Shown here piece by piece: positions 1 through 64,000 of a DNA stretch of 64,000 nt. The number at the start of each line of letters is the position of its first letter. The first letter of the stretch is position 1. Source of the DNA: Bilabrum cf. latius (lineage: Eukaryota); the NCBI GenBank assembly GCA_965178125.1, contig OZ237755.1, positions 310,001 to 374,000 on the forward strand, read 5' to 3'. The notes beneath the pieces are model-generated. The model saw only the letters and a list, made by a program, of their open reading frames with translations, ran no database searches and was not told the DNA's origin. Made by a program: the position numbers and the translations under genes.

Positions 1-655
1 GAACATTTAGTCTCCCCAGGAGAACATGCTGCAGAGCATAGAGGACGAGCTGGCCAGGAAGAGGCTCCTGCCCGCCAGGGAGGCCGCGATGACGAGGGCT
101 GTGCGCGGCGCCGACGCAGTTCCGCATGGCGAAGACGCCATCGAGCTTTCTTCGCATGTCGCGGCCGGAGCCGCTGCCCCGAGGGATGGAAGCACAGCAG
201 AGAGGGGGGGGTCGGCGAAGCAGGGACAAGGCCCCCAGACGCCACCCCAGGTGCCCCCGCTGAGGGGTCGCTCCAAGGGATCCAACGCAGACTCGGAATC
301 AGATGCGGGAGGCGCTGCGAGTCCCGGGTTGCGCACACTCCTGCCGCACAGTATGCCGGGGGTCGATCGGGGCCCGGCGGCTGCGGCATCGGGTGGCTTG
401 CCTGTCGCTACTAGCGGTGCGGGTCGGTCGCGCGGAGGCTCACTCACAGTGGTTCCGGCAGTGCGCCTGGACAAAGCGGGCCAACGTGGTGCCGGTGGTA
501 GGGTTACTCACCACGGCGATGTTACGGTGCAGGTGTCTGCGAGGAGGGGAGACACCAGCAACGGAGGCGGAGGGGGAGCGGGGAGCAAAGGGGGCGAGGC
601 GGGCATCGTGCGGCGGCTATCGCCCAGGTCCCACGCCTCCCCGAGAGAAAATTGA
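1..655 (+). CDS. 3' end of an unknown low-complexity protein (5'-truncated by the window)
   Basis: The frame of ORF 26..655 is open to the window start except for an in-frame TAG at 8-10. Ends TGA 653-655. No recognisable domain. Confidence 0.55.
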
Positions 656-837
656 GAAAAAATGAATTCGCAACTTCGCTGTAGACCCTATCAGAACCAC
701 GGGGGGATTATTTGCGCGTTGAACAGCTAAAGCCGAAGTGCATATAAGCAAGCAACAAGCAGCAATCCTCCTGAGCCAAATCCAGTGGCAGCCAGACTCT
801 CCCGCCTTAGGAGGTCCAGACGGGGTGGAGCGGCAAA

Positions 838-3800
838 TCACGCCAGCTGCACCTGCAAGACTGATCCTGTTGGCACGGAGGCCGGAGCAGCCAGCCCAAC
901 GAGCAGCATGCCGCTGGCCTGCTTCGTGGTTGCGACAGCGACCGACTTGCCGTCGAGGGTCACCATCGCGCTCGCGCTGCTCGTCTCGATAACGAGGTTC
1001 TGGACGGTGACTGAACCGTACGATACCTTCCAGCTCACAGTACCACCCGCCCCTCTTCCACTGACCGCGGGGCCCTGGGTACTCGCTCCACACCCGCACG
1101 AGGGAGGGCGACCAGCTGCATCCGCGGCGGGCGGTTGCATGCTCGCCTGTCCCCAGCCGCTGTCCGTGGTGAACCAGCCGCAGAAGCTTCCGTCAGCAGC
1201 AAGCACCCGCGGAGCGATGGTCATCTGCAGCGCCGGCTTGTTCCAGCGGATGCCGGCCGCCAGTTCGAGCAGTGCAAAGCCGCTCATGGGTCTGGAGTAG
1301 TACTGCCCGCACTCGATCTCGTTCACCACGCTGCGGCGGGTGCCATCCTGCCTCGCACGCGTGTCAAGCAGCATCTGCTTCCACACCGCGTCGGTCCCCG
1401 GGGTGCCACAGGCGAGAGCAAGGCCGGCCATCGGGTACTCGATGCCGCTCCAGGCGGCCTCTGAAGTGTACAGCAGCGGCTTCGGCGGGGGCTTAGAGTC
1501 GGGCCAGGTGGCAATGTACAGCCCGCTGTCGCGCTCGTCGTAGAACTTGCGAGGGTGTTGGTCACTAGGATTGAATCCATCGCGATGATTTGCCCCGAAC
1601 ACGCCTGCCACCGCCGTGGCCACATGATCGGCTGGCAGCAAGTCACCCAGATCCAGGATGTACGCCCACCACTGGCCCAGCAGCTGGTCCGTGAACGCAC
1701 CATCCGTGAGCTCGTTCACGTGGTGCTCCGGGTCCGTGACCTGGGTGTACCACTTGCCGTTGGTAAAGCAGAGAGTGTCTAGAGTTTTGGAGCCTAGCTG
1801 GAAGCGCGCACCGTACTTTGAGGCAGAGGCCGAGTCCCCAGCCAGCTTGGCCATTTCCTCGCAGGCTCGCAGGCCGCACAGATACAGTGCGCTCATGAGC
1901 GTGTTCACGCCGTACAGGGGGCAGTCATACGTAGAGGGTTGCGGCCCTCGAACCACGCCGTCTCCCTTCAGGTCAAGCTCGGTCATCCACCTCTCGATGA
2001 TGCGCTGGCATTGCGGCCAGGACGCCGCGAAGAACGGGTCCTTCATCGCGGGAGATGACGTGGCGATGAGAACCTCTCTGTAGGTCTTGAGCACCGTGGA
2101 CATCTCACCGTCGGTGCATATCGTCTGGGAATCGGGGCTGACCTCGGTGTACTTGGGCCAGAAGGACCAGATGCGCCGGAGCTCGAGCGGGACGATTGTC
2201 CGGGACGGAATGATGGCGTTGGGAGCGATCTGCTCGTGCAGGTCCACGTACCGCATGGACCTCTCCAGGTCAGGAAACAGCTTCGTGAGCGTCTGCTCGT
2301 ATCCCCAGACGTGCGTGCAGTTGAGCGGGCAGCAGCCCTCGGTCGCATTCGAGCCCTCAAAGCCGTACATCCTGCCATCCTTGGCCACGAAGCACGTCCC
2401 CGATCGCAGCACAGATGCGCGAGGGGCTGCCGAATCCAGAATGTACCATGGCAGCGTGCTCCCGTCGTACATGGCGCTTTGGAAGGCCTTCGTCTGCTGC
2501 AAGAGCGGGTCGGCATTCGCAGCAATGCCCTTGAGCAGGGCGCTCATGTCTGCCCACTGCAGCGAGTAGCCCGCCCCCACCTTGAGGTTGCTCATCTCGG
2601 TGTCGTTGAGGCCAGGCTGGCGCCAGGTGACTTCGCGGTTGGGAAAGTGCCACGCCAGAAAGAAGCGCACCGTCTTGGTCTCGCCCGCAGCGAGATCCAC
2701 AGTCGCCGCCACTGCCCCGATCCACGACTGCCCGTCAGGGCTCGGCCCCTGCCTGCCTGAGCCGGGCAGGGCGCCATGCCCTGCCACGAACGTCTCCCAT
2801 GCCTCCACGCAGGAAGCGGCCTGGGGCAGGACGGTCACGGTGGCGCCGGCACCATCCGGACTGCATCCAGCGGCGCAGCAGCCTTGTTCACCGTCACCAG
2901 AGGCAGAGGGCACGTCCACGACCCCGATCGCCAAGGTGCCATTGAACTGGTCCGTGGGACGGGCTGAGGTCTGAGTCATCGTCACGGCGGTGAGGCCGCT
3001 GGTGAGATTCACCACGGAGGCGGCGTTTCCGCCCAGCAGGCCCTCGCCTGTCAGGGGTTCAGTGACCCCGCCCTTCAGGGGTGTGACGCCGTCCCAACCT
3101 GCCGTGTTGGCCTGCGTCTGCAGGATGGCAGCAGTCATGGGCGCCGCGTTCGTGTTCTTGAGCGTGTAGGTCACGAAGACCGCCGGCATCTGGCTGTTTT
3201 TGGAGTCGAGGGGAACGAACACAGACGAGTAGTCTGCCGTGACTTGCACGCCGTTCGTTTGCGCCACATCAAAGTTTGCGCTTACGCAGGGGAACTTGGC
3301 CTCCATCACGGTGCCCCCGCTCAGGTGAGGGACGGCGTTGGCAACGTCGATGGAGCTCTGCGGCACCACGTGATCCTGGGTCATGGGCGCTGGTGTCCAC
3401 CCCGATTGGTCGTAGTTCTGGTCGTCTAGCAGCAGCGCGGCTGTCTCTGAGATGCCTGCCACTGCTTCTGGTTTCGAAGCGCTGGCAGCCTTGCAGCAGC
3501 CCTACGCATCGCCGGCAGCAGCAGCCATCAGATCTGCATCGCTTGAGGCAGCAGCGCGTGCCGCCTTGGCTTCGAACGAGGCACCTTTCACGTGCAGTCC
3601 GAACACACACCCAGGGACCTCCCCGTTCGGAGCCACGCACCCATTGACCTGCCACTGTCTCCAGCCCCCGTCGCCCGCGAGACTCACGCCGCCGCCCCCG
3701 ACAGACCCGAAGTTGTATTGGAAGGCTCGCAGAGCTGTGGTCTTGTACGTAAACTAAGGCTAGTCAGGATTGCCTTGGAATCGCTCGGCACGCAGGCCCT

Positions 3801-4643
3801 TGCCCTCCGAAGGGCCCACGCCCGGAAACCACTGCCCGCCCTCGCTCGGCTTGAAGCAGCATCCGCCCTCGCTCGGCTTGAAGCAGCATCCGCCCTCGCT
3901 CGGCTTGAAGCAGCATCCGCCCTCGCCGCTCGTCGTGCTTGCAGACGGCCCGCAGCAGCCGCCTGCCGCGCACCCACGCGATGCTCCTGGGGACGGCGAT
4001 CCCGAGTCTCCGCCGCAGCCTGACGACGGCTCGCACGACTGCAGCCCGCCCGCCCCTGTGGCGCTGCGGCCGCAGCAGGCCCTGGCCCTTGCCTGGCTCG
4101 CGAGCTGCACAGCCTCCGCGGCTGCGTGAAGCTTCTCCCTCGCCTCCGCAGTCAGCGGTTCTGTATTCGTTCCATAACCTCTAGGGGCTCCGAGCGTCAT
4201 GTCTGGCGAACGAGACGAGCAGGAGGGCTGGGCAGCGCAGCAGCTCGTGGACTCTCGCTCGGTCGTGGCACAACAAGTGGCTGGCACTCGGTGCATCTTC
4301 AAACGTAAAACGCCACCCTCGGCGTGGCTTTGCACGCTTCTAAGTTCATCGTCATCTGCGATACAATGTGTGCCAGGCCAGAAAGACGTGCGCACCTAAT
4401 AGAGACTCGAAAATAATCAAGGATCGTTCCAAGATCCGGGTTAGCCTCACTTTGCACTTGTGCTCCCGTCTTCGCGCACGTAATACTAAACGTGCCCAAT
4501 TTGGCTCCAATGGCTCTCCTGGCGTCAGTCATGAGGCCACGATAGGAGCCGTCGCTGCACTGGAACCTGTACATGGATCCATCGACGCTATCTTCGATCT
4601 TGACCCGAAGGCTATTTGGCCTTCCACAAGCGTCAGCGTCCAT
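838..4643 (-). CDS. GH116 beta-glucosidase/glucosylceramidase (GBA2-like) with N-terminal PB1-like and Cys-rich segments
   Basis: ATG 4643, predicted intron 4356-4450, in-frame TAGs at 3760, 3754 and 3502, TGA 838. GH116 motifs: FGSVGGGGVSLAGDGGWRQWQV, FFLAWHFPN, GFEG..CCPLNCTHVWGY, STYD, DQLLGQW, EAAWSGIEY, ECGQYYSRPMS. Confidence 0.85.
3836..3926. repeat. 27-bp coding tandem repeat x3.3 (SEGGCCFKP)
   Basis: ccgccctcgctcggcttgaagcagcat repeated three times plus a partial copy. Confidence 0.95.
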
Positions 4644-8040: not shown

Positions 8041-11004
8041 TCACTGCCTCCAGAGCGCTTGCCGGATTTCATCCGAGCCGTGTAGGTCGCCTTCTGGGGT
8101 CCCGGTGGCATCCGCAGAGAGCAGCTGCGCTCGCGCCACGTGGAGGGGCACCCCATTGACAGCAGGGCCGCCCCAATACGTCGGCGCGCGGTCCGCTGCA
8201 CTGTCCTTGCCCCCCATTTCACCCTCCACTGCGGAACCAACCGCGCGCGGCGCCGCGCCCGCGAGGAAGCCCATCCTCGCCCGATTGCTCTCCCGAAGGG
8301 CATCCACATCCTCCCCGCGCACCGAGTGCCCCAGCTCCGCCAACGCACTGGCGAGGGAGACCACAGCCTCGCGCGCTCCACTTCCCCTTCCTCCTCCTCC
8401 ACCCACACCGCTCCCCCCAGTCTAGTCTGCTGCAGGCATGGGCAGCACCGCGAGGGCATACGCGCACATCTCCGCCTCGTCCCGAGGCATCGCTGCCACG
8501 ATCCGGAGGGCAGCCGAGGCAGGGTCCGCCGGGACATGCGCCCCTGCCCCTGCACCTGCACCTGCGCCTGCCTCGCGCACCTCCATCCCCTCTCGCACCA
8601 GAGCTGCCATGGCCCCCGACACTCTGGCCTCGGCCTTGCCCAGTGCCCTAAAGTAGTCGTGCGTGTGTCCGTTGAGCCTGGAGGACACGTCTGGCCCCGG
8701 TTGCACCTGCTCCCTCATACGGAGGAACCACTCGCACGCCCTGCTGAGATCCAGGGCCACCTCGCTCCATTCCCTGCCGCTCTCGAGCTCGAGGGGCCCC
8801 CGCATCCCTCGGGAGGCGGGGGCCTCGCTCCTGCCTAAGCGAGAGGCCAACGGTTGTGATTGTGTTCCCTGGCGCGTCCCCTTCGATGCGCCTGCGTTGG
8901 GCTCGGCACGTTGCCCCGTCTCCTTGCGACTCATCAGCTGCTGCACCCCCTTGGGTGCTTCGCCCGAGCTCGCGCTCGCCATCAAACCGGTTAGGGCACT
9001 GCACCCAGATAGGTTCTCTCCCTCCGGGGCCATCTGCAGCGCCCTGCCAGCCGCGCCAGCCAGCAGCCTACCGTGCCTCGCGAAGTCTTGAGGCCTGGAC
9101 AACACAGGGATCACCACTCGCCTGCAGAGAACCCTCTCTGGCAGGCCAGCCACGGCCCCCTTCAGCTCCTTGACCAGCGCCACGCGAGAGGATACGTCGG
9201 CGTCTGCGTCCCGGGCGCATCGCTTCGATTCGGCCACTAGCTCATCGCGCCCCGCAACGATCTCCACCGCCGCGACTGCAGCAGCAGAGGCCCCATCCAC
9301 GGCTCGAAGCAGCCGCTCGATCTGCACCGCGCCTCGATCCAACACAGCACCAGGCTGGCTCGAACCAGCTTCCCCAGACGCGCTCGCGGCCCACTCCTGC
9401 GCCTTGCTGGCGGGAGGCCCGCTGCGGTCTTGCTGCTACAGGGCCTGTGCGCCATCCAAAGATGCAGCCGCCAGCTGCTGTGCCGCAGCAACCGCCTCGC
9501 CCAGCCGAAGGAGCATGGCCTTGGGAACAGACGAGACACCCGCCCCTGCCCGGGCATCCACCAGTCGCCTAGCATCCGTGCACGCGGCACGCAGTCGTGC
9601 TGCAGAAGCCTCCGCAGCGACCGACAGCATCTCGGCCTCCTCTGCGGTCCAGTGCAGGGTGCGCCTGTTGAGCTGCCTGGCGACCGCACCCGCCACGGGG
9701 ACTGCACCGAGGTGGTACGGGCAGTACGCCTTGTCTCGGATGCTCTTGCAGACCCCTTTCATCGACAGTGCTGCCGCTCCCGGCCCAAAAGCAGCCGCAC
9801 GGGATGGCAGAGAAAGCTTCGTCTCCTGCTCACCTGTGCTGCTTCGTCTCCTGCCAGCAGACGGTGCGTTCGAAGAGGCAGACAAAGAAGACGACGACGA
9901 CGTCGCAGTGGCGGTCGACAGCGCCTCTAGGGCCCGGGCGATCGCGAGATCAACACTCAGGGCCGCGGCCTGCCCGCGGTCCCGCTGCTTCTGCTCTTTG
10001 ACTCCCGTCGCCGCGCTGTCCCCCCGCACGCGCTGTCCGCTCGCTACGGCGCGCCAGTGGCCCCGCTGCAGCGACTGCGCCGCGTCCACAACTTCCAGCA
10101 ATCGACCGGGCATGCTACTCGCCATGCCATCCTTCGTGAAACCGTCCACGATCTCCCCCGCACGTCTCGCCAGGCCGGACACCTGATGCCTGGACAGCAG
10201 GTGCTCGCCGAGGCCCTCGCGGTGCGGCTCCATCGCGTCCCCGCCGGCTGCCATAAGAGCACGGCACACGGCCTCTACTTGCGGATCTAGCAGAAGGGCA
10301 GCGCGCTCTACATTCTTAACTTGAACCTGTCTGAAATGGATGCCGGGGCCAGACTCTCGCCTAGCAGCGGCCAAGGCTCGCTTCACTGGCCGGCAAACAT
10401 CAAGCCTAGCACTTGACAATCTCGTGGCTGCGGTAAGGACGGGGTCAATCGCTCGGCCAGTAGAATTCCATTCTAGCAGCGCACCAATTCCAGCCTCGGA
10501 TGCACTCTAAAGGGTCAAGGAAGCTGTCATAGAAGCCGATCGCGTCTCGACTGTTCGAGGCCGTTGTTTCAAGCGTCGACCCTCAGATTCCGGCCTTTTT
10601 GAGACGCCGCCTTCCAAGCCAGACTTGTACTATATTGATTGACTCTTGGGAAGAGCGGCCATGGGCCTCGCTGCGCCGGGGCTTGAGGTGAGGCATCTCG
10701 AAGGAAGCTTCCACAGCTTGCCACCAGAAGCAGGCGTTCCACTGTCAACTCGAACAGTATTTGGGGAAATCGTCTGCTAATTTAGAGACTTATTGACCCT
10801 TCTGTTCATTCCACCGAGTCCTTCATCTCTTGAACCCGTGCATACAGACGAAAATGACTTGACTGGTGGGAGATCGGCGCATCTCGCAGTGTGCGGCTGC
10901 AGCACCGTGCTTCCTTGCAGTTTGTGGATACCCTCTGACGTATCAGGGAGTCTCAAAGATCTAATGATGCACTGGCCAGCTCTAATACTGCCAGACCGTC
11001 TCAT
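8041..11004 (-). CDS. Unknown Ala-rich protein, ~990 aa (start uncertain)
   Basis: ORFs 10777..11253, 9436..10419, 8422..9345 and 8041..8406 share one frame, joined by TAGs at 10777, 10630, 10507, 9436 and 8422. Ends TGA 8041. Confidence 0.6.
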
Positions 11005-11124
11005 GTGTACAGCTGGACCGTCAAATGGAGTCTGTTGTTGTCGAACTAGTCTGGTTAACTGACTCTTTGTAACGTGACGTTTACCCCGAGCACGACCGGC
11101 GGCATTGGGCACGTCTGTGAAGCC

Positions 11125-13168
11125 ATGCAGCGAGTAATTAGGGGCTTGTTCCGTTCCAGGCCTTTTGTGAGGACTGTAACTGGCAGCAGGAGGATGTAGG
11201 GCTGGAACGCGCAGTTTTCCTCTTCGGCTCGATCCAGTGCTGGAACCAGGCACACCTGTCCGTACGGGGACCTGCCTTCGATGCCCACAGCATCTCTTCC
11301 GGATTATATTCTTGAAGTGAGCATAGTGCGGTCATCTTCTCTCCCGCGCGTTCTGCTCTGACGGCCGTAACGTGGGTGGGATCCAGGTTTGCCGGAAAGT
11401 GCAACCCACAAAGATCGTGGCAGGCCGTAAGCCGGTACTGGCCACATGATTACAGCTCCCAGGCGGATTTGGTGTTCATTTTTCTGTGTTTGCATGAGCA
11501 GGAAGCGAAATAGCGCGGTTCGAAGCCCGCCCTTGTCTGCGGAGTATCGTGAGGCTGATGCTGTCGCTCCAGCGGTGCACATTCCCGTGTTCGCGAGGTA
11601 TTCGCCGCAAGTTTTGGCGCACTAGTACTAGCATCGCTACCACGTCTCGCAGGGGTAAAACAGTCACGTACGGCGAGATGCCTGGGTCGGTTCGCAGCGT
11701 AGCGTCCTAGCTGGCCCAACTTGGCGTGTCCTCGGGTGATGTCGTTGGCCTCCAGATGCCCAACAGCCCCGAATTCGTGATTGCATTTCACGCTATCACG
11801 TCCTTGGGAGCCACGTGCACGACGATTAGCTCGCAGTACACCGGGACGGAGATCGCCTTCCAGCTCAAGGAGAGCGGCGCGGGCCTGTTCCTGACGTCCC
11901 CCGTGTTCGAGGAACAAGCCAGGGCGGGGGCCGAGCACGCCGGGCTGGGCGCGGACAAGGTGTGTGTGATTGGCGGCAAGGAAGGCACTGACCCGGTCAC
12001 GGAAGGCATGGCGGACTGGAGCGCGCACGACGGAGACGCGGGAACGCCGATCGCGGTGGACGGCGCCATCAAGGACCCGGCCACCGCCGTGTGCGCGCTT
12101 CCCTTTTCCAGCGGAACCACAGGCATGCCCAAGGGCACCATGCTGACGCACTTGAACATCGCCGCCAACACGGCGCAGATCGTGGAGCACGCGACCCACA
12201 ACCTTGACATGACCGAGCAGGACAAGGTGCTCGGCCTCCTGCCGCTCTACCACATCTACGGCCTCACCGTGCTGGTCAATGCGGCGCTCCGAGTGGGCGC
12301 TACAGTGGTGACCCTCCCGAAATTCGACCCCGCCATGTTCCTTGGCGCCATCGGGCAGCACAAGCTGTCCTGGCTGCCTCTCGTGCCCCCCATCGTCCTC
12401 TTCCTGGCCAAGCATCCCACCGCGGCTGCAGCCGATCTCAGCAGCGTGCGAGTCATCTTCAGCGGCGCTGCGCCCCTGAGCGGGGAGCTGCAGCAGGCGG
12501 CCGAGCAGCGGCTGCAGGGCACCTCGGTGAGGCAGGGGTGGGGCGCCACTGAGATCGCACCGGTTGGAACCATCACGAGCGGGAGATCGCAGAAGGCTGG
12601 CACCACGGGGCAGCTCGTGCCCAACTGCTCCGCCTTTGTGCTGGGCGATGACGGGCAGCCGTTGGAGGGATACGGCTCGGGTGCGACGGGCGAGATCGCG
12701 ATCACCGGCCCCAACATGATGACCGGGTACCTGGGCCGGCCCCTGGACGACCCCGAGACGTTCTTCGTGCATGACGGCACCAAGTACTGGCGCACCGGAG
12801 ACATCGGGTACTTTGACGAAGACGGGCACATGCGGATCGTGGACCGCGCCAAGGAGCTCATCAAGGTCAAGGGCATGCAGGTGGCGCCCGCGGAGCTCGA
12901 GGGGGCGCTTCTGACCCACACCGAGATCGCGGACTGCGCCGTCGTGCCCATCCCGGACGAGAGGGCGGGGGAGCTCCCCAAGGCGTTCGTTGTGCGCGCC
13001 GACACGGACGCGGGCAAGGCCCTGACGGAGGATGCCGTCAAGCACTTCGTGGACGGCATCGTGGCGGAGTACAAGCGCATCGCCGAGGTAGAGTTCATCG
13101 ATGAGATCCCCAAGAGCGCGGCCGGGAAGATCCTCCGCCGGGTGCTGCGGGACAAGCCGAGGCAGTGA
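11125..13168 (+). CDS. 4-coumarate-CoA ligase/luciferase-like acyl-CoA synthetase with a mitochondrial-type presequence
   Basis: Exons 11125-11316, 11502-11548 and 11653-13168. TAGs at 11197, 11511 and 11708. Motifs PFSSGTTGMPKG, QGWGATE, RTGDIG, DRAKELIKVKG, PKSAAGKILRR. Confidence 0.88.
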
Positions 13169-38667: not shown

Positions 38668-38814
38668 TAGCTTCAGGAAACTCTCAGTGGTTCTAGGAAA
38701 GTCTAGATTCAGTTTCTTGGCCTGCAGTGTGTGACGAGTCCGCATTGATGTAACGCGTACATTACAAAATTGTATTGGTTTAGGACCGACGCATCTATTC
38801 TACTCAACATCGCG

Positions 38815-50000: not shown

Positions 50001-53000
50001 CGATGGCCGCGGCTGCCGCTCGCCTGACGGCCGCCGCGACGTGCGTAAGGAGCGCAACCAGGGTGCGCCAGAACACGGATGGGGGAGAGTGCGTCGAGTC
50101 GTGGGCCTTGAGGGCCGGTCGGGGGCTCAAGGCAGCCGGGGACGCGAGCTTTTTGGGCGCCTCTTCGGACGATCCGCCGGCACCTGAGCTGGCCTTTCCC
50201 GCAGCAGCCTGCGCCTCGGGCGATTCGGCGGCGTCCTCTTGCGCGAAGCCGTCGGCCTGGCACGTGGACTCGACCACCTCCTGAATGTCCGCGCCAGCAT
50301 TCCCGGCAGTAGCTCCGAGCAAGTCGGAGCGGATGGCCTCTTTGGTAGGCTCGGCGAAAATCTGCGGGTGTGCCGTGGGCCAGCGCAAAGCGATGTCGCC
50401 CATGGTGGCAGCAAGGCACACCAACGACGGCTGCAGACGACGCACGTGGCCCCTGGTCCTGCCCGATGCGAGGAGCAGCGGGTCTGACGACAGGAACGAT
50501 TTCTTCTCAACCAGTGCGCCAAGCAGGTCCACCGCCCCCGGGGCACTCCCCACACAAGGTGCCTTTTTCTTCTTGCTGCCACCGCTCTTCGACGACGACT
50601 TGCCCGTGGCCGCAGCAGATCCTGAAGATTCCTTGCTGCTCTTGCTCTTCTTCCCGCTCTTGCTCTTCTTTCCAGTCGAAGCTGCCGGCATGAGTCCAAG
50701 CATCGCGAAGTCCATGGCGGCGGACTTTGAGCTCTTCTTACTCTTGCCTCCTTTGCTCTTCTTGTCGGAGGATTTCTAGGACCCGCTCCCAGCCCCCGGG
50801 TCCGCAGCCAGGGCAGCCGACGCCGACGCTTTCTTCTTCTTTGAGGACTTGAGCTCGGCCTGCACCTCCGCGCTGGTCTTCTCGATCGCATCCCTGACGG
50901 GCCCTCCTCGGCACGCTGCGCGCAGGAGCGCGCACGCTGCGTAGATCCCGCACGGTGCCGGCGCCAGCGGGTGGCTCGCGGCAAACCAAGCTAGCTGCTG
51001 CAGAGGCTAGACTAGCTTCTCCACGGCAGCTGCAGACTGCTCGGCGCAGGGACCGGATGCCCCGAGGCCCTCTGCAAGAAGACGGGCGAATGCGCCGGCC
51101 TTCCTGAGGGCCACGCTCTCAGCATCCTTGGCCTCGCCCCCGACCACCGCGGCGGCGCCTGCCTCGATGCACTTGGCGAGCACCGACTCGATGGCGGCGG
51201 GCATGCTGCCGAAGGTTCTGCAGACGGCCCCGAGCATGCGGATGCTGCCCTCCGCCGCGGCCGCGTTGGACTCGCCCGAAGCGTGCTCGGTCAGTGTCTT
51301 GATGAGGGCGTCTGCGGCCGGCTTGGCCTGCGCATCGGTGAGTCGAGCAGTGACGCGAACCTCCGCTGCGTCAGACTGCGGGCCGTGCACGAGGTCGGCC
51401 TGTCTGCCCAGCGAGAGTGCGATCGCGTTGATCTCCTCCGATGCGGCGTACGGCAGCGGCCTGGTGCGCGACAGCTCCACGGGCACCGCCGTCGCAGCGG
51501 CGGGACCGCTACCCACAACCTTGCCGGATTCGTCATAGCCAAGCCCGTGGAAAGGTGAGTCTGCCTGGGTCGCGCCCACGCCAGTGGCGAGGGAGCTGGA
51601 GGCAGCTGCAGCCTTCGCGTGCAGGCTGGTGCGGACCGTACCGACCACCGTCTTCAGGCACGTGCCGGGCGCGAAAAGCCCGGCGAGACACGCTGCCAGG
51701 CCTCGCGCCTGAAGCGCGCGCGCCTGCCAAGAGCCCAGAGCTGCCTTTCCCTTGCCGCTGAGCTTCGTGCCGGAACTCTTGGCGACTGCTGCGGCGCAAG
51801 CAGCTGCGGCGGCTCCTTGCGCTACTGCGACAGCAGCAGCGATTGCCCTAATGCAAGCAGCGTGCAGCGTGCCGTCAACTTGCAAAGAACTGAGGCTGCT
51901 ACTGCTCGCAATTGCTTCGCAGCACGAAGCCAGCGCGTCCTGTGGGATGACGTCGCTCGGCAGCGAGGCCAAGAGCGTCGCGAGGCAGTGCAGCTGGGCT
52001 GCAGAGGAGCTGCCAGCCGCCTCTGCTACCATCGCGCCAAGCTCTTGCACGATCGTGTCCCTGCTGTTCACGATGGAGGCCGCCGCAGCGATGGCTGCCT
52101 GTGCTTGGGGAGCCTCGTGTCTCCGCCATGCCCCGTGGCTGGCGCCGCCTGACGCCCCCGCTCCCGAGGAGGCAGCGCCGTGGGCCTGAGACACAGACAC
52201 GGCGGCCTCTGGGTCGGCCATGATGGATGCAATGTGCCTCGTGGCGGAGGACCGCAGCACTTCGGCCCACTCCGGCGCTGGGTCCGACCGGAGCCCCTGC
52301 CTTGCTGCCCTAGCGGCCGTCTCGACGGCGGCCGCGGCGGGCGTCGCGCCGGCCTTGGCCTCTTCAAGGCGAGAGACGACAAACTCGCGAGATTCCTAGG
52401 AGCGCGCCAGAAGGATCGAAGCTTGAGAAATGCAAAGTTGTCTGAACTTGCGCGTCTTCGAGGCACGGTGCTCAGTCCACGCGCCTGCTTTCCGCTGGCA
52501 CAGGTCGCAGGCCCGCAGGATGGCAGCGGTCAATGCTGCGGCTGCGGGCGCTTCGGAGCGGCGCTACTCAACTTCATCAGCTAGTGCTACTGCTTCGTCG
52601 TCGTCGTCGTCGTCAACCTCCGATTGTTTGTGTTCCTGGTTGCCTTCCTGCTGGCTAGAAAGGGACCGGAGTACCGCCTCCGATTCGCGTCTGGCAGTGC
52701 TCCAGCTCGAAAGCAATGCGCACGAGCACCTGACGAAGTGAACGAGCTGTATGTCGTTGTAATCATCAAGTTTTACGTCTCCTGCAGTGGTTGATGAGCT
52801 CGGTGTGCTCAAGAAATCGGTAATTGCAGTTGCGCGCATGCAAAGCAGCTTGGGCGCACGATAGTCCGCTTACCTTTTCGAATGCGTCGTTCATATGCTG
52901 CCAACGCACCGGGATTGGCCCCAAGCTATGAATAGGTCTGCGGAAGCAAGAACTTAAAATCCTGGATTCGCCAGAATGGTCTGAAATGAAATGAACAGCA

Positions 53001-53633: not shown

Positions 53634-56600
53634 TCATTTTGTGCCTGTGCCAGAGCCATTGCTGCGAGCGTACGCCGCCAGCCGCGCCCGCACATCCAGG
53701 CGCCTCCTCGCGGGCTGCCCCGATGACTTGCTCTCGCTGGCCCCCGCGCCTGCTGCAGATCCCCTTGATCCCTTGCCCTGACTAGCAGCCGAAGGGCTAT
53801 CCAACGCACTAGGCGAGAAAGCGAAGGCACCTGCGGCAGCGCTCCCCGTCGGCTTGTTCGTGGCCTACTAGCTGGCATCCTGCGTCCCCTACGCACCGGT
53901 GGGCGAAGGCACCTGCTTCTTGACGGGGGAAAACGACGGTGTCACGGCAGAGTTGGAGGCACCATGCAAGCGAGACAACCCGTTCGGCTTCGGGGCCGAC
54001 CGCTGTGCCGTGGCACCGTCGATCTCCGCACCGGTCTCGCCTGCTGTTCTCCGCTGCTCCTCCGCGTGCTCGAGGCAGTCCCGAAGGTTCCTTAGCGCTT
54101 CGACGAACTTCGGGCTGTATCCGCTGCGCTTGATGCTCGCCTTCAGCATATCGTTCATCTTCGCCGGCGGGGTGCGCCGGGCAGCCCACATTCGATGCAC
54201 TGCGCTACGAGTATCCAACAGCCGCTGTCCCTGCCGGGCGCGCTCCATCAGGCGGCTAACTCTTCCTTCCAGCGCCTGCTTCCGCGACACCAGTTCGTCG
54301 CATCTAACGTCAAGCTGCGTGATCCGCCCGGCCACCTGCCTCAGCTTGCCCTGCGCCTGCTCCGCAACGGGCCGCATCCACTCTCCCCGCTGCACCGCCT
54401 GCAGCTCGCTCGCCGCCGCGTCTCTCGTCTCCCTTACCCTGGCCTCTAGTCCCGCCTTGAATGAGTCCAGCATGCGCTCTGCCCTCGCCTCGTATTCTTT
54501 CCTGGCGACTTCCTCCGCGTGCTGTACAGCAGACGCGCGGCGAGCCTCCACCGCAGCTGGCGACTCATCCAGGGGCTCGGAGACCCGCTTGATCAGGTCG
54601 GTCAGGTCACCGGCCCTTCCTTCCGCCGAGCCGTCCGGTACTGCTCCCGCTGCCCGGGCCGCCTCAATCTGCGATTCCATCTCGTACTGCACCACGCTTT
54701 GCGCGAGAGCTCCGAGTTCTTTGCGCTGCTGCTCCCTGATGGCATCTACCGTCTGCCGCATGCGCTCCAGCTCGTTCTCAAGCTTCTCCTTGGACTGCCG
54801 CACCTGCTCCCACTTGCCTTGCTTCACCTCCAGGATTGGCATGAACTGATCAACATGCTGCTTCCAAGCCCTGAGTTCCTCTTCCCGGCGAGACTCCTCC
54901 TCCGCACGGGCAGAAGACATGGATGACTCGGCTGCTGCACCCAGCCGGTCAAACGTTCTTGTGATATGACCCAGCCCAACGGTCGAGTCTGCCACAGCAG
55001 GATCAGCGACAGCGTCCCTCAGTTTCACAGCTTGTCTGGCATAGTCGCGGACCTCGTGCATTTCCATATCGGCGGCAATCACGCCTCGTGCGGTCGAGAG
55101 GCCCTCGCCCAGCCGCGCGCCCACCCGGCCCACCACATCGTACTCAACAGCCGAGGCTTCGGCCATTCCGCAGAGCAACTGCTTTCGGACCATTGCGAGG
55201 TCTTGGCGCCCGTGGAGAACTGCGCTGCGCACGCCAGCAAAGAGCGCGAGTGCAGTCTACGGGCCGCAGAAAACAGCGGCAGCCACTGACTCCCACGACC
55301 GAAGCCGGCGCCAGCGCAGCAGAGCTGACCCAAAGTTCCGTTTGAATGCTTGCGCAAGCTGCACTACCTCCTGTTGGCTGGACTTTGCAGAATCCCTGGC
55401 GGCGCTCGAGAGCGGCGAAGATAGGACCCCGTGGATGGAAGGAAACAGGGCATCGCGACCAGCAGCCTGCGATACCAAATCCTTTGCCTTGGCCTCGTAC
55501 TCGCCGCGAACCCGCTGCAGCAGCGCGCTTACCACACGATCAGTTTCGGAGAGTGGGTCGGGCATCTTGACCTGAGGACCTGCCAGATCGTGGGCGTCGT
55601 CTCGCACAACAAGGGACGTACTAGCCGAAGCAAGGCTCCCCTGAATGCCTGCGGCCTTTGGGTCACTGCGCGCGTCTGCGGCAGACTTCACCTTGTACGG
55701 AATTGGCAGTCCATCCGCGCGGGCGATCTCATGTCCCTCTGCAGAGGGAGTCCAGGCGTATGGGCCTGAGGACATATCCTTCTTCGTCGCAAGCGCCTTG
55801 AGACGCTGCTTGCCCTCGGCTGGCAGCTTGTTTGCCGCGTAGTCTTCAGGATCCTGCACGGCGGCCAAATCGACCCCGCTTCGCTCAAGCAGCCCAGTGA
55901 GAGCCTGGCGCCTGCGCTGCTGCCTGAGCCGGATATCTCCCACGTCCAGGATTCCATCCAGGCCAGAGGTCGCAACGTCATTCTCTGGAACGAGCAGGAG
56001 GTCGTTTGCTTCTCTTTCTGCCTCGCCTGCATTGGACTGCAGCGCGGCCAGATCCTCCTCCCAGCCCAACAGGTCTCGTTTGCCAACAACTCCGCGGAGC
56101 GCCCGCTCTCTAGGTGACTGGGTAAGCTGCTGCAGGCTAGCTGAGGCTGGCGAGCCCGACGGTAGCGGGCTCGAGGCCGGTGATCGAGCGCGGGCATAAT
56201 TGGAAGCTCCTGGCGTGACGGGATGCTTCGTTTCGGTGCCCGGGGAGGGGACAGACCTGGGCAGAGCAGGCGGCTGCTGCTGCCGGTCACTCATATCTGA
56301 GTCATCTGCGCGAACTAGTTCTCGCGGCTGGTCGGCGTGCTCTGAAGGCAGCAGTTCGATCTTGCGCCTGCCTTGCAGCAACACGGGATCCAATGGAGGC
56401 GTGGGCGGCCGGGCACTGGCAGGCGCAGGCGCTGGAGCCTGTGGCGATCGTGCTGATTCAGATTGGGCTCTGTGCGCCCGCATCGGAGAGAACAGACCCA
56501 TAGCCGGATGCTGGCTCGCGGCAGCATCGATCGGATTCTCGCGCTGGCTGGAGTAGTCTCGAGTCGCCGTCGATTCCGATGGCAGCTGGACGTTCTGGCC

Positions 56601-59600
56601 GGAGGTTGATCCCTCAAGAAGATCGGCAAAGCTCACGGGCCGCTGGTCAGGTGCACCCTCTGGCGTCCGCGGCCTCATCTTCGATAGTACGTCGGCTCGG
56701 CTAACGGGAGACTCTACAGCACTGGCTGGCAGCCCGCCAGATCGCCTCAGCTTCGCCAACTGCGCGTCAAAATCTGTCTGGCTGGGCGATTTGGCAGCTG
56801 CTTGAGCAGCACTGTGGGATAGCGCAATTGGCGACAAGGCCGGCGATTGCTTGCCGCCATTCTTCCCCCCAATCGCAGGAGATGAAGGCCCTACGGTGCC
56901 AGCCTGGACAGCTGCCGGGTCGTAAGCAACAAACGTAGGCATATCTTCGGTTGCCAGCATGGTCGCGCGTGCATGCTCATCGTCTTCAATCTCGCGGCCA
57001 GCCCGCGTTGCCTGCTTGTCCACACTGCCTGCACCCTCTCTCGAACCGCTGGCTGGGCTTCCTTTCGAGCGGTGCTTGAGCATCACAGTCTCGTACTCGG
57101 GACGTACCACGCCCCTCAGACCTCCAGCGATTGGCTTGTTCACGTAAGCGGGACGGCGAGGAGCAGCTTCCTGCTGAGATGCAACAGAAGAGTCTAGCGC
57201 ACTGCTGCTCCGAGATTTCCTGCCAGGGGGTGCACGCGGCCTGATGGGAGGCTTTGGAGGACGTCGCCGCCTCCCTGGAGGGCGCGGGGGGCCGTCCCCG
57301 GCGCGCACCGCAAAACTTCGGGGCTCAACGATTGGGGCTCGCTGATGTGCCGCACTCTGCTTCGTAGCAGAGGCAGTCCTTGCTAGTTCGCTGAGTGACG
57401 GCTGCTCAGAAGGCGAGCTGGGTCTGTCGCTTAGATCCAACTCCACCGGCGCCTACTATTCGATGGTATTGGGTAGTTCGCCGAGCTCCAGGCCAGTTTT
57501 GGGTGCAGGCTCTGGCGAGACGGAGGGCGGTGTCTTTGCCGCCGCCGCCGCTTTCGCAAGCATAGGTCCTTTGCTAGGTGTTTCTGGCGGACTCTGTGCA
57601 CTTGCAGTGCCGTCATTCGCGTTCTATTCAGTTTTCCCAGCCCTTGCTTCAAGAGAACCAATATTCCTTGCTGATGCTTGAGCGTAAATTTCGGTTCTAC
57701 TGGCAAGATCTGCCGTGCGCTGAACGCCGCCAACAGCTGTCGATGCGTTGTATGGTGTAGCCGTTCGCTTTACATCGTTAGCCTTGGCAGCATCCGCCTT
57801 GGCAGCATCGACCTTGGCAGCATCGGCCTTGCCAGCACCCGCCTTGCCAGCATCCGCCTTGCCAGCATCCGCCTTGCCAGCATCCGCCTTGGCAGCACCG
57901 CCCTTGGCAGCATCCGCCTAGGCAGCACCGCCCTTGGCAGCATCGGCCTTGGCAGCATCGGCCTTGCCAGCATCCGCCTTGCCAGCATCGGCCTTGGCAG
58001 CATCCGCCTAGGCAGCATCGGCCTTGGCAGCATCGGCCTTGGCAGCACCGCCCTTGCCAGCATCGGCCTTGGCAGCATCGGCCTTGGCAGCACCGCCCTT
58101 ACCAGCACCGCCCTTGCCAGCACCGCCCTTAGCAACATCGGCCTTGCCAGCACCGCCCTTGGCAGCATCGGCCTTGCCAGCACCGCCCTTAGCAACATCG
58201 GCCTTGCCAGCACCGCCCTTGGCAGCATCGGCCTTGCCAGCACCGCCCTTGGCAGCATCCGCCTTGCCAGCATCCGCCTTGCCAGCATCCGCCTTGCCAG
58301 CATCCGCCTTGGCAGCATCCGCCTTGGCAGCATCGGCCTTGGCAGCATCGGCCTTGCCAGCATCGGCCTTGCCAGCATCGGCCTTGCCAGCATCGGCCTT
58401 GCCAGCATCGGCCTTGGCAGCATCCGCCTTGCCAGCACCGCCCTTGGCAACATCGGCCTTGCCAGCATCCGCCTTGGCAGCATCCGCCTTGGCAGCATCG
58501 GCCTTGCCAGCATCCGCCTAGGCAGCATCCGCCTTGCCAGCATCGGCCTTGCCAGCATCGGCCTTGGCAACATCGGCCTTGGCAGCATCCGCCTAGGCAG
58601 CATCCGCCTTGGCAGCATCGGCCTTGCCAGCATCGGCCTTGGCAGCATCCGCCTTGGCAGCATCGGCCTTGGCAACATCGGCCTTGCCAGCATCCGCCTT
58701 GCCAGCACCCGCCTTGGCAGCATCCGCCTTGGCAGCATCGGCCTTGGCAGCATCGGCCTTGGCAGCATCGGCCTAGGCAGCATCCGCCTTGCCAGCATCG
58801 GCCTTGGCAGCATCCGCCTTGGCAGCATTGGCCTTGGCAGCACCGGCCTTTCCAGACTCAGCTGCTTCGCTAGGTTTAGTCGACGAATCTGCCTCAGGTG
58901 CCTTTGAAACTACCGTAGATGCCTTTGAAGTGGTTCTTGTACCAGTCGCTTGCTTCGAAGTCTTGGCCTTGGTTCCAGAAGACTTCACCTTGGTGCCTTT
59001 GACCATGTTGCCTTTCGATTTGAGCCGCTTCGAGCTGCCCGACGGTTTCGCAGTGGTGGTCCCCTTGGGCTTCACCTTGCCGCTACTTTTCTTTGCAACC
59101 GCACTGGTGGCCTTTCCAGAAGGCTTCAATGCCGAGGTTTTTGGTTTCACCCCACTTGAGGGCTTGATAGCAGCAGATGGCTTGGCGACAGCGGATAGCT
59201 TGGCAGCAGCAGATGGCTTCACAGCAGCCGCGGGCTTAGCAGAACTGGATTTTGCAGTAGTCGCTGAGGTGGCAGAGGGCTTTGGCTTCACAAGCTTCCC
59301 GCTTGACTTGGCCTTCACCCCAGCCTTCATTCCGGACTTTTTACTGCCAACTTTTCCCTTGGTTGACTTCAATTTGATTCCCGATATTCCACTAGCTGAT
59401 GGCTTCGCTGCCGTAGCCTTCGGCTTGGTTGCCTTCACTGAGCTAGATGATGCCTTCTTCCCAGACAAAGGCTTGGGCGATGACTTTCCAGACTTCACCT
59501 AAGATGGAGAGGATGCCTTCTTCCCAGACAAAGGCTTGGGCGATGCCGGCTTGCTGCCACTGCTTGGCTTCGGGGAGGATGCCTTCTTCCCTGCAGGCTT

Positions 59601-61609
59601 GGGCGATGCCGGCTTGCTGCCACTGCTTGGCTTCGGAGAGGATGCCTTCTTCCCAGACAAAGGCTTGGGCGATGCCGGCTTGCTGCCACTGCTTGGCTTC
59701 GGGGAGGATGCCTTCTTCCCTGCCGGTGTAGGCGATGCCGGCTTGCTGCCACTGCTTGGCTTCGGGGAGGATGCCTTCTTCCCTGCAGGCTTGGGCGATG
59801 CCGGCTTGCTGCCACTGCTTGGCTTCGGGGAGGATGCCTTCTTCCCTGCAGGCTTGGGCGATGCCGGCTTGCTGCCACTGCTTGGCTTCGGAGAGGGTGC
59901 CTTCTTCCCAGACAAAGGCTTGGGCGATGCCGGCTTGCTGCCACTGCTTGGCTTCGGGGAGGATGCCTTCTTCCCTGCCGGTGTAGGCGATGCCGGCTTG
60001 CTGCCACTGCTTGGCTTCGGGGAGGATGCCTTCTCCCCTGCAGGCTTGGGCGATGCCGGCTTGCTGCCACTGGCGGGTTTCTTTGAGCTTGCACTAGGAT
60101 TTGTGGGCTTCTTATGAGACGCAGGCTTGGCATGGCTGGTAGATGCACTGCTGCCACTGCCTCCACCACCAGCTGATGCCGCTGGAGCGTCGCCTGCGGC
60201 TGCAGTCGGCTTTTTCTTTGGTTTCCCGCTCTCCTTCTTGCCTTCCGGTGAAATTAATGCCTTGCTAGATGCAGCTCGAGCGACTGATTTGTCTCCAAAC
60301 GACAGCTTGACCTTATCTGCGGCGTGTACCTCCAGCTGCAGCGGGTCGCCAGCCTTGCGATGTAGCTCAATCTTGCTACCTCCTCCCGCAGCTGCAATGA
60401 GCCCTCCCATGGACGTCGCGCCCGAGGCCAGCATCTTCGGACGACCCGAGTCAGACCACGTCATCAGCATCAACTTAATATCGCGCGCGTCATCGCCATA
60501 TGTGAGCATCTAGGCGGGTATTTTGATGTTCCAGCGCGGAGAGGTGGTCTGCCTGGCAGGGAGTGATTCCCAAGCCGGCATGTCTGTGCCATCCGAGTCC
60601 TTGCGCATGAAGAGAAGGGTCGTGTCAGGTTTCGAGTAGGAGCTGGGCTTGGGAACGCCGTGGATGGACACGTCAAGGCCGAGGCATCCCGCGGCGGTGA
60701 TGGCCTTGTCCACCACAACTGCAGTGAGCTGAAGAGAGCCGATTCCCGAGCCCCTTGTCTCGTGCACCAGGCCATCCCTGACGGTCAGGCCCGGCATGTT
60801 CAGAGTCTCGTTGAGAGTCATGTGGGCCTCTCCAAGGTACTCCTACTCCTTGACATCGTCACTCGGAGTTTTTCGGTGATAGGCCTGCGGCAAAAGTGGA
60901 CGGCCAATACGAAAAGCGACCCATGGACGGATCAGGCAAGCGCCGATGCATAGCATGCTGAGAAGCTTACAACCAATCGTAAGGCCTATTTTTTCCCTCC
61001 TAGAAATTTCATTTTGATGCCTTCGCTGAAATTGTGGTCAACCGTGCCCCTGCAAACGTTTCAAGGGAGAAAGCAAGCACTAGATAGAAGTGGCGACGGG
61101 CACATCACTAAAGGTTGCCGCAGCGCCTGAGCTCATTCGGCTGCTTCGCTTCATTCGACGCAACTTACTTCGATGCTGTTTCTGTGGTAGCAGCAACTTC
61201 CCATTCCTTGCTTTTCTTCTTGTAGGCCTGCGTAGTATTACAATGGGCGCAGCGAAGCATCGAGCCCTGTCCGGAACACTGTGATTAGGTCTTTGAAACT
61301 AATGGCCCACGCTCTACCTCACCACAACAAAGCATGATTTTCCTTTCTCTATCCCTCGAATCCCAAGCGCGCAGAATATCTGCAAGTACCAAGGGTGTGA
61401 AATTGCAACAACTTGCTGGGTCCTACATACGGTGCATGTCATCCAGCAGATGAACGGAAGTCGCGACACGAACAGTACCCGCCGTGAATATAACCGCAGC
61501 AACATCATTTGCGATCGAATCAGGCATTCATGGTCGTGCTTCGGATCATGAGTCTCACCTTGGCGCCCTTATCAATTTTCCCGGGTTCCGCAACCGCTAC
61601 CGAGGCCAT
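53634..61609 (-). CDS. Giant (~2,500 aa) protein: two copine-like C2 domains, K/P/S repeats, AKADA repeats, C-terminal coiled coil
   Basis: Exons 61559-61609, 61323-61379, 61169-61227, 60971-61049 and 53634-60884, all phase-consistent. About 16 in-frame TAGs. C2A: WEVAATTE..KK-TAG-ALRLVAY..EYLGEA. C2B: SKPD..SPRW..LTYGD..IKL..W..G. TGA 53634. Confidence 0.72.
57781..58850. repeat. 15-bp coding minisatellite, ~70 copies (AKADA/GKADA on the minus strand)
   Basis: gccttggcagcatc(c/g) variants in strict 15-nt phase. Confidence 0.97.
59450..60075. repeat. 63/66-bp coding tandem repeat, ~9 copies (SPKPSSGSKPASPKPAGKKAS)
   Basis: The cgatgcc anchor occurs at 59541, 59604, 59670, 59733, 59796, 59859, 59925, 59988 and 60051. 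Confidence 0.95.
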
Positions 61610-62051
61610 GGCTCGCGACGATCACGCGGTAATCACAGAGTTACACTGTTCTATATCCAAGGGTACAAGTTGCTCGTTCAGACTACGCACAGATCCTGAG
61701 CGCGACCAATGAAATCTCGGGCTCGGACGTTGCGGAGGTTGCAACCGCTTGCCCAACCGATCCACGCAAATCCTGGCACATACCAGGCTGAGAAGTTAGT
61801 GGGATACAGGATCTTGTATTTTTGTGCATCTGACAGTATCGCCGTGGTTCAGCCGTTCTACAATCGCGCAATCTGACTTTGATCCCGAGTGTCGGGCTAC
61901 ACGACTTTCTCGAATCTCGTCGATTACATTGCGGTGAGCAAATTCTGTGTGTTTCCACGGGGTAATTTGTATATTTAATCAATGTTCTCCTATTCCATTG
62001 CATTTCGTCTTATTCTTGTGAGCGCAGTCGTTGTTTGGCGAAACTGCACCC

Positions 62052-64000
62052 ATGGCAGACCGCGAAGGGACCTTGCCCGGACACTGGCAACCTGACAGCT
62101 TGGATCAAGTTGGCGACGATATTGGAGCTCGCAAGTTTAGATTTGAAGCGGTCCAGATGCCAGGTGGACCAACGGCTTCAGATCGACTTCGTGGGTTTGC
62201 AATGGCAACCAAGACAGACTAGGCAGTATCATCCAGGCAAGAGCAAGGGGCTGCTAGCGTGCCATCGCCGGGCCGAGACATGTGGGTCCATGAGAATGGA
62301 AGCAAGGCGAAAGAAAGTCGGCGTGGATCGGCCCATCCGATGCCATAGGCCCCACTTACCTGGGGTGAGGCGTTTGAATAGAATGGCGTCCGATCTGGGG
62401 ATAGCAACGGAGTTCGAAAGCAGCCAACTCGCGCTTTGCCTGAACACGGCACTAAAAGAATGACCCAGGAGTAGAAGCCGCAGTCTTCAAAGCCGCTTAT
62501 GCGCCCGAGTCTCACCGCTAGCCTTCTAGCTAGGGCCGAGGCATCGGGGATGCAGCAGCTGCCGTCCCCCACCTCTGGAGCGATGCGGCTGGAGCAGGCG
62601 CCCCGTGGACCCAACCAGGCCGCCAGTCCTGCGAACTCATTCATTTCAAGACTATCGAGGGGGAATCTGAGCGGCGGGGCACCTGCGTCATTTCTTGAGG
62701 CCGCAGAGCAGAGCGCGATCCGGGATACAAGGTCCTCAGCCAGGCTCGCGACCAGCTCTGGTGGCTCGAATGGCAGCAGCACTCGCACGGCCGGCCCGAA
62801 TAACACGGTCTCCAAAACGCTTAGTGACAGCCAGAGCAGCGGAAGCCCTAGTACTCGGGGGCCCCGCAGACCCAGCGGACCCTTGCCGCAGCATGCAGCC
62901 AAAGCCTCGATTGAGCTGAAGCGCGCGCGATCAGTGGGGCAGATCGTGCTGTCACCATCCCCCGCCGTTGCGCAGCCGCAGCCACCACCACCGGCCCCTG
63001 GCAGGGCATCGGGCGTTTCCTTCTCTCCTGATAGTACGGGGGTCACGGGGGGGGGGCTGTACAGTAGCGCGATTGCAGCTGCCACCGACAACTCGTCGCC
63101 AGCACCTCAGCCACCACCAGCCCCGCCCGCCCCGCCCGCCGCAGGGGACAGCGGCAGCCCGTCATCTCCCAGCCAAACCCGCCAAGAGCCAGGCCGGGCC
63201 TCCATGAGAGAGCGACGCACCGCGCAGATTATCCGTGGTGGCAGCAACGGGTACCGATCAGACACGCCAGAGTCTCCCACCGCTGAAGCAGAGCTGAAAG
63301 CCAAAGCAAAGAAAGCAAAGACCCTGAGCACGCTCCCGCACCTCAGCAGGAAGTTCGAGTCCTCCTTTGTGCCGTCACCATCTGCACAACGGGGCGTGCA
63401 CTGGAGCAGGAGCTCCCCGGAGAGTTCCACTTCCCCGAGCTCTGACAAGGCTTCCCAATCGACGAACCAGAACCGGTAGAGCGGATCCAGGTCGCCTTTT
63501 GCTCTCATGCGAGCTGCTGGTGCCACCGATGGCACCGCAGAATCAGCGCCACGTTCTGTTGAGGATCCAGACAAGCCACCTTCCCTGCAGCAGTACCTTG
63601 CGTAGCTTCGCGGCGATCCGGACGACAGCGATGACCCTGTCAGGGATCTGCGCTTTGAAAGAAAATCAATTGGTCGATCTGAGTTGGGTGGATCACCGTA
63701 GAGGATCAAGCAAGCAGCAGCAGAGGCTATGCGAGGGGCGCAGGAGGCGTCAAGACTCGCTCATTTGGCCTAGAAGCACCGTGAGAAAGGCACAGGGGCT
63801 GGAGGCATTGCGGATGACCTGCAGATGACTACATAGCACGGTCGGTTGCCCGATCACCGGATGCTGCACCCGAGCCCTGGGCACAAGCATGCAGGGACCG
63901 ATGATAGCGATAGCGAGGATGGCACAGGGTAGGGTGGTGCAAATCCATACGACCGAGTTGATATGGAACAAGAAGGCACTGGGCAAAGGGCATACCGCAG
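62052..64000 (+). CDS. Unknown Ser/Pro-rich disordered protein (3'-truncated by the window)
   Basis: A single frame from ATG 62052 to the window end, interrupted only by TAG (62220, 62346, 62379, 62472, 63477, 63603, 63699, 63771, 63834, 63930). Confidence 0.65.

Follow-up and report, generated by a model that had tools for sequence, protein, structure and literature searches.

UAG alone as a sense codon, probably for glutamine, in the nuclear genome of Bilabrum cf. latius, a putative relative of the bicosoecid Cafeteria

In the ciliate and hexamitid code (NCBI table 6) both UAA and UAG are read as glutamine (Gln), and the mapping in which UAG alone carries this meaning corresponds to NCBI table 15. 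The subject of this article is a 64,000-nucleotide stretch of nuclear DNA from Bilabrum cf. latius (contig OZ237755.1 of assembly GCA_965178125.1, positions 310,001 to 374,000 of the forward strand; hereafter the window), in which TAG stands inside the reading frames of many genes. Nuclear codes that split UAG from UAA are rare, the examples named in two accounts being a fornicate, a rhizarian, a green alga and a few ciliates (PMC11687900, PMC5304391). The nearest parallel is the fornicate Iotanema spirale, described as reading UAG as Gln, with UAA and UGA as stops and a predicted tRNA of anticodon CUA (Panek et al., 2017, PMC5304391). The ciliate Protocruzia tuzeti and the phyllopharyngeans are given as UAG-only cases with Gln or leucine (Leu) as the meaning (McGowan et al., 2024, PMC11687900), while UAG is listed as Leu in the uncultured rhizarian exLh and as serine (Ser) in Scotinosphaera (PMC5304391, PMC11687900). 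Glutamate (Glu) is the reported meaning of UAG in an oligohymenophorean ciliate, where UAA encodes lysine (Lys) (cited in PMC11687900), and of both UAR codons in Blastocrithidia (PMC12153298).

The code seen in the window is like that of Iotanema in that only UAG has been reassigned, UAA and UGA terminate and Gln is the best-supported meaning. It differs in occurring in another supergroup and in GC-rich DNA (~62%), in the lesser certainty of the amino acid and in having a second, related lineage in which it could be found; its main stop is UGA, whereas UAA is dominant in both taxa of the Iotanema paper, as reported there (PMC5304391). With the UAG-only ciliates it shares the uncoupling of UAG from UAA and, if the meaning is Gln, the same codon table, but the organism is not a ciliate, its genes have ordinary spliceosomal introns and its closest GCN1 is from a stramenopile. 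In exLh and Scotinosphaera, too, UAG alone has become a sense codon in a nuclear genome; here, however, Ser falls 20.7 nats below Gln in the tree likelihood described below and Leu lies outside the eight best residues. The oligohymenophorean ciliate and Blastocrithidia differ in that UAA is also sense, whereas the 11,745 supported codons of the window include no internal TAA. The table 6 code is alike in reading UAG as Gln, but it also makes UAA a sense codon, which UAA is not in the window, where one gene ends in TAA. Among the papers covered by full-text searches on stramenopiles, bicosoecids and heterotrophic flagellates no nuclear stop-codon reassignment was found (supplementary files lay outside the search), and in a 2024 stramenopile overview the sole occurrence of 'genetic code' is in the title of a reference about mitochondrial codes. 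Within the literature so searched, this is a known code variant in a lineage of a new supergroup.

When TAG was read as a sense codon, the ten longest frames of the window grew from a total of 7,927 codons with the standard stops to 13,365, compared with 8,146 when TAA was freed instead, in which case no large frames were fused. Nineteen long frames contain 73 TAG codons, to which five more are added by a 4-coumarate-CoA-ligase-like (4CL-like) gene (one), exons 1 and 2 of LIS1 (three) and a short frame that resembles a first exon and has the motif KKXALRL (one). The resulting total of ~78 is close to the 'about 80' of a first-pass annotation made from the sequence alone, although at least four of these are probably noncoding: those at residue 7 of a GH116-like protein and residue 13 of an acyltransferase-like (AAT) protein precede the likely starts, that at residue 128 of an FkbM methyltransferase lies upstream of the domain and that at residue 7 of a cytochrome P450 is intronic. 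Thirteen segments supported by Pfam matches or homologues, 11,745 codons in all, contain 35 in-frame TAGs and no internal TGA or TAA; they end in TGA (12) or TAA (1), while their other two frames hold 378 TGA, 115 TAG and 47 TAA codons. Because TGA and TAA are spared where TAG interrupts, chance, pseudogenes and sequencing errors are unlikely sources of the pattern. The earlier description of frame-preserving TAGs on both strands thus holds, the fusion of frames being specific to TAG. UAG is an ordinary sense codon in this nuclear genome, as seen in the DNA and in the spliced contigs described below. The density of TAG is uneven (8 in 666 codons of a transporter gene, 0 in 2137 codons of three neighbouring genes), which, as a post-hoc observation, suggests a mild avoidance of the codon that persists in some genes.

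The remaining two stop codons have kept their roles. Eighteen frames close within the window once TAG is taken as sense, 17 of them with TGA and one, that of the transporter, with TAA; a nineteenth runs off the window. From the ratio of CAA to CAG codons (68:378), ~6 internal TAA would be expected in the supported codons if UAA shared the new meaning, and none is seen. The change is therefore confined to UAG, as the first reading of the sequence had proposed, and UAA is still a stop, its use as a terminator being seen in one gene.

Window sequence is present, wholly or partly, in 14 of the 15 public sequencing runs listed, which come from nine studies, and contigs from four were compared with it over positions 29001–49000. 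This interval includes five genes with TAG codons. LIS1 (29527..31660, minus strand) has three exons, introns at 31082–31172 and 31550–31630 and TAG at 31643, 31640, 31357 and 30651, and its spliced translation matches a LIS1 structure in the PDB. The monocarboxylate-transporter-like gene of the MFS type (33300..35297, plus strand) is the window's only gene ended by TAA. The PLD-like gene (37132..38436, minus strand) has one TAG at 38328. The P450 gene (38812..40833, plus strand; Pfam p450, 2.9e-60) has a GT..AG intron at 38929–39123 and exonic TAG at 39490 and 39991. GCN1 (41092..52869, minus strand) is a single frame of 3925 codons ending in TGA, with Pfam HEAT_EF3_N (8.6e-62) and GCN1 HEAT families; it contains 10 in-frame TAGs, one fewer than had been counted by hand.

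Run X1 is the best DNA match, with long contigs that continue across introns and intergenic DNA. Runs X5 and X6, from two other studies and labelled as other organisms, gave gene-sized contigs. In both, the two LIS1 introns are removed (GT..AG after a shift of 1–2 bases), and an X6 contig joins P450 position 38928 directly to 39124. Since these three introns are missing, we read X5 and X6 as assemblies of complementary DNA (cDNA). The labelling of the runs speaks against this, X5 being described as 'RNA? (probably DNA)' and no RNA run being listed as a match. The aligned X5 and X6 pieces show no other letters and no gaps relative to the window. X5 contigs span 20 of the 21 TAG codons checked in the five genes, 18 in exact-match pieces and two in an end piece of 44 bases deduced from the joint, and X6 contigs span five TAG codons, all in exact match. 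On GCN1 the X5 contig covers 41024–47367 and 47433–49000 and on the transporter 33302–35362, with no other letters in either case, and on the PLD-like gene both the X5 and the X6 contigs are identical to the window. TAG is thus present in mature mRNA, as far as assembled contigs whose RNA origin is deduced from the missing introns can tell. The contigs end 26–180 bases past the frame-closing TGA or TAA, which is consistent with termination there, contigs being no proof of RNA ends.

These data bear directly on the idea that no code change has taken place and that the TAGs are products of assembly errors, pseudogene lesions, RNA editing or intron content. Such causes do account for single cases, the TAG at 39049 (residue 7 of the P450 frame) being intronic and removed in the cDNA contigs, and four TAGs in all lie outside the likely coding parts. 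As a general explanation, however, the idea is so improbable as to be negligible, because contigs of four studies are identical to the window where they cover it, the spliced contigs retain 20 TAGs, and TAG, never TGA or TAA, occurs inside the 11,745 supported codons, a pattern that is repeated in the related lineage described below.

A stretch of 65 bases in GCN1 (47368–47432, minus strand) is skipped in the X5 and X6 cDNA contigs and kept in the X1 DNA contigs. The possibility that it is an intron was rejected: GT..AG borders cannot be placed in any permitted register, and removal of a length not divisible by three would put GCN1 out of frame. Two copies of an 8-base direct repeat flank the stretch, which spans a perfect GC-rich hairpin of 17 bp and is probably an artefact of reverse-transcriptase skipping or template switching. 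At least four studies, whose runs bear the names of four different organisms, contain window sequence, so that the organism may be carried along in the cultures of others, either co-cultured or as a contaminating flagellate.

The closest named GCN1 is that of Cafeteria roenbergensis (45% identity), and a GCN1 tree of 976 columns places the window protein as sister to the group of Cafeteria and sequence P0002, with SH-like support of 0.985. This single-gene placement would put the organism near the bicosoecid Cafeteria, among the stramenopiles, and agrees with the guess of a bicosoecid-like flagellate made at first reading. The GCN1 proteins of these relatives (2930–3504 residues), called under the standard code, show no internal TAG, where ~8 would be expected at the window rate. 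A metagenome scan with a GCN1 segment alone returned 593 pattern matches, with no relative among them. A second scan, for which the query was an alignment of the transporter and its best homologue, returned one contig, L001, of 3763 bases and 54.5% G+C. Over 382 reliable positions the L001 orthologue of the transporter is 84.6% identical to its counterpart in the window, four-fold sites being saturated (51 of 167 identical); it has 12 in-frame TAGs in 668 codons, one of them common to the window, and a TGA end. The first part of LIS1 is found at the opposite end of the contig, interrupted by an intron at the same place as in the window. With L001 using TAG in this way, the code change belongs to a lineage and is no peculiarity of a single assembly. 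LIS1 of the L001 lineage (L001 1–520, minus strand) is represented among database proteins by P0169, a fragment called under the standard code whose first residues were translated from the intron; it shows how such genomes get mis-annotated.

As to which amino acid is inserted, the individual TAG columns point most often to Gln. The first TAG of LIS1 (31643), which had been proposed to stand at a conserved Gln, does so, with Gln in 71 of 86 orthologues, Glu in 3 and CAG in L001; the column of the second holds arginine (Arg) in 51 and Lys in 18 of the 86, and that of the third Lys in 32, Gln in 22 and Arg in 16. The P450 TAG at 39991 (residue 321) also falls at a Gln position, as had been suggested (48 of 120 homologues), and the column at residue 154 has Arg in 28 and Gln in 20 of the 120. 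At residue 2307 of GCN1 Gln is found in all five nearest relatives. The transporter columns are mixed, and two of the sites that had been cited for Gln are there as codons but not as described: the transporter TAG at 33681 stands in a column without a Gln consensus (Arg in 14 and Gln in 1 of 18), and the TAG at 60986, ascribed to a copine C2A domain, is in a short frame in which Pfam shows no copine or C2 domain. The single 4CL-like TAG faces glycine, asparagine (Asn) and glycine in three distinct plant 4CLs among the five PDB alignments shown and is uninformative, and in the PDB alignments of the GH116-like and PLD-like proteins the TAG sites fall outside the aligned part. An all-against-all search of the window for paralogues that could serve as TAG partners found none.

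Of 12 reliable TAG sites, five face Gln in the nearest homologue. At codons of known meaning the nearest homologue has Gln opposite 27 of 106 Gln, 2 of 102 Lys, 6 of 178 Arg and 4 of 135 Glu codons, the rate for Lys, Arg, Glu and Ser being 2–4% in each case. The binomial probability of Gln at five or more of the 12 sites is accordingly 0.17 if UAG encodes Gln and at most 4e-5 under any of these four others. In their likeness to Gln, TAG columns match ordinary CAG and CAA columns (Mann-Whitney p=0.45), and in their likeness to Glu they fall below the columns of real Glu codons (p=0.013). In a tree likelihood, calculated on fixed LG+G4 trees with L001 among the sequences and with each residue in turn assigned to the TAG sites, the scores over 14 reliable sites relative to Gln were −3.9 nats for Glu, −15.6 for Lys, −19.6 for alanine, −20.3 for Arg and −20.7 for Ser; Leu and tyrosine (Tyr) were outside the eight best residues, all of which lay within 22.5 nats of Gln. 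By this ranking Lys, Arg and Ser are excluded. We put the probability that UAG encodes Gln at roughly 0.7, an estimate that takes into account that known cases of UAG as Gln outnumber those of UAG as Glu. The first-pass annotation, in naming Gln, had therefore picked the best-supported meaning but stated it with more assurance than is warranted, as Glu, 3.9 nats behind over 14 sites, is a live rival.

Several results weigh against Gln, and they do not all favour the same alternative. The first group would fit a meaning of UAG as another single residue (Lys, Arg, Ser, Leu or Tyr), for which precedents exist elsewhere in UAG=Leu and UAG=Ser, as listed in PMC11687900. A profile likelihood (hmmbuild --enone) over 10 columns placed Arg above Gln by 4.1 nats. 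The same method gave a tie over 12 columns (Arg +0.1 nat) and Gln first over 16 columns, and it is unstable, recovering true Gln in 57–64% of unstratified draws; a family-stratified calibration was not relied on, its pools being very small, and default entropy-weighted profiles were too flat to discriminate. A minus-strand frame of low complexity (53634..61037; 2467 codons, 15 TAG, no Pfam family) contains an array of 72 units of the pentapeptide KADAA, the first codon of which is AAG 67 times and TAG five times, so that TAG here replaces Lys codons only. Four of the five TAG units share the next codon GCG, however, which implies few mutational events, and Lys was for this reason rejected as a meaning drawn from the array. 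Against all these residues stand the tree-likelihood deficits given above, the absence of Leu and Tyr from the eight best, and the probabilities of Gln at five or more of 12 sites, which are 6e-6 under Lys, 4e-5 under Arg and 3e-5 under Ser; a meaning of this kind is very improbable.

The second group favours Glu. Under such a code a CUA-anticodon tRNA derived from tRNA-Glu would read UAG, and the TAGs at Gln positions would be CAG-to-TAG transitions by which Gln was replaced by Glu, with the oligohymenophorean ciliate as a precedent for the meaning (as cited in PMC11687900). Between the window and L001 the partners of TAG are Glu (GAA) four times, Gln three times and Asn and histidine (His) once each: window TAGs face GAA at residues 41 and 163 of the transporter and at the second LIS1 TAG, CAG or Gln of the L001 lineage at the first and third LIS1 TAGs, and AAT (Asn), CAC (His) and TAG at one site each, while L001's own TAGs face a window GAA once (transporter column 2) and CAG once. 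The ordinary Gln and Glu codons of the transporter never interchange between the two (nine Gln–Gln and three Glu–Glu pairs), and at residue 163 Glu is found in L001 and in the three nearest other homologues. The transporter family taken alone places Glu above Gln by 3.7 nats, and over all 18 sites Gln is ahead of Glu by just 1.1 nats. On the other side, Gln leads by 3.9 nats over the 14 reliable sites and by 7.5 nats in the three families other than the transporter, and the TAG columns are, as noted, less Glu-like than true Glu columns. Reading UAG as Glu would also displace the LIS1 Gln kept in 71 of 86 orthologues and put an acidic residue into an Arg/His column of a transporter loop and, at the TAG shared with L001, into what by eye may be a membrane helix, where the homologues have glycine, alanine or Ser. 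We regard Glu as unlikely, although it is by some way the most serious of the alternatives to Gln.

A third explanation is that UAG is ambiguous, eRF1 ignoring it and near-cognate or dual-identity tRNAs inserting Gln together with Glu and/or Lys, with TAG being kept only at sites tolerant of polar residues. In yeast, near-cognate read-through of UAG inserts Gln, Tyr and Lys. When every site is allowed to be Gln-like or Glu-like, the fit improves by 4.7 nats over pure Gln, which is a further point on the opposing side, and mixed decoding would also suit the range of TAG partners in L001 (Glu, Gln, His and Asn), the AAG codons for Lys in the KADAA array, and the crowding of TAG in the transporter and its absence from the three neighbouring genes. 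However, TAG stands at the strongly conserved Gln of LIS1 and its columns behave like ordinary Gln columns, the same pattern would arise from one-step GAG-to-TAG and AAG-to-TAG mutations under a plain Gln code, and 14 sites are too few to bear the distinction. Mixed decoding is in our view improbable; if true, it would be a living example of the 'ambiguous intermediate' stage of a nuclear code change.

If UAG encodes Gln, the decoder would be a tRNA with anticodon CUA, which could have come from tRNA-Gln(CUG) by one anticodon change and would read UAG and not UAA. That UAA is still a stop points to this anticodon, as CUA pairs with UAG and not with UAA, and the same argument for a CUA tRNA is made for Iotanema and the rhizarian exLh (PMC5304391). 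An ARAGORN scan of the window found no tRNA genes. On the side of termination, recognition of UAG by eRF1, the gene for which lies outside the window, would have been lost or weakened. Because UGA ends 17 of the 18 closed frames, UAG may already have been rare as a stop before its capture. The TAG codons themselves may have arisen by point mutation, silently from CAG, and from GAG and AAG as replacements of Glu and Lys by Gln at tolerant sites. As GAG and AAG are one mutation away from TAG, changes of Glu and Lys to Gln should, under a plain Gln code, show preferentially as TAG, and the first codons of the KADAA units fit this scheme.

The genome is of interest beyond the addition of one more case to a short list, since its GC-richness and the closing of nearly all its genes by UGA touch on the question of how such changes begin. 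The two related lineages, of 62 and 54.5% G+C and with differing densities of TAG, offer a natural comparison for dating the change and following the spread of the codon. Standard-code gene finders would truncate most genes, and the annotation, binning and phylogenomics of these flagellates thus need the right code table.

The window has a G+C content of 56–68% (~62% overall) and holds eukaryotic genes tightly packed on both strands, those for a GH79 protein, the AAT protein and the FkbM methyltransferase also being among its families. The remaining frames with TAG include that of the GH116-like glycosidase (838..4200, minus strand), with three TAGs past the likely start, one of no known family (8041..11331, minus strand; 1096 codons, five TAG), and that of the 4CL-like AMP-binding protein (11498..13168, plus strand; Pfam AMP-binding, 2.3e-83), with one. 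A BNR/sortilin-like repeat protein (22501..25281, minus strand) has four TAGs and found no match in the PDB, and a WD-repeat protein (25916..28372, plus strand) has five. At the edge of the window an open-ended, putatively coding frame of no known family (62022..63998, plus strand) has 10 TAGs in 659 codons. The KADAA array, with variants, lies at 57800–58900 on the minus strand and follows proline-, serine- and lysine-rich repeats of ~21 residues; the N-terminus of the frame that contains it looks C2-like by eye, and Pfam assigns it no family.

Several glycosidases occur in the window, namely the GH116-like protein, GH79, GH3 and the BNR-repeat protein. Among solved structures, the GH116-like protein has its best match in a bacterial exo-beta-D-arabinanase (8ic6, E=1.2e-67) and not in a glucosylceramidase. 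The GH3 gene is one of the three neighbouring genes without TAG, which lie in succession at 13454..20952 on the minus strand (a ubiquitin-containing protein, GH3 and one of unknown type); at the window rate of 0.3%, ~6–7 TAGs would be expected in their 2137 codons. The first of these (13454–16309, minus strand) encodes a protein of 951 residues with a full ubiquitin domain in mid-chain (Pfam 3.9e-30, residues 438–509) and a weak match to DUF4139. The internal ubiquitin domain ends in LRGA instead of LRGG and represents an unusual internal ubiquitin fusion. In the FkbM methyltransferase gene (32302–32884) runs X1, X6 and X8 also carry diverged second versions, with tens of base differences and small indels, which suggests a paralogue or a second allele of the same organism.

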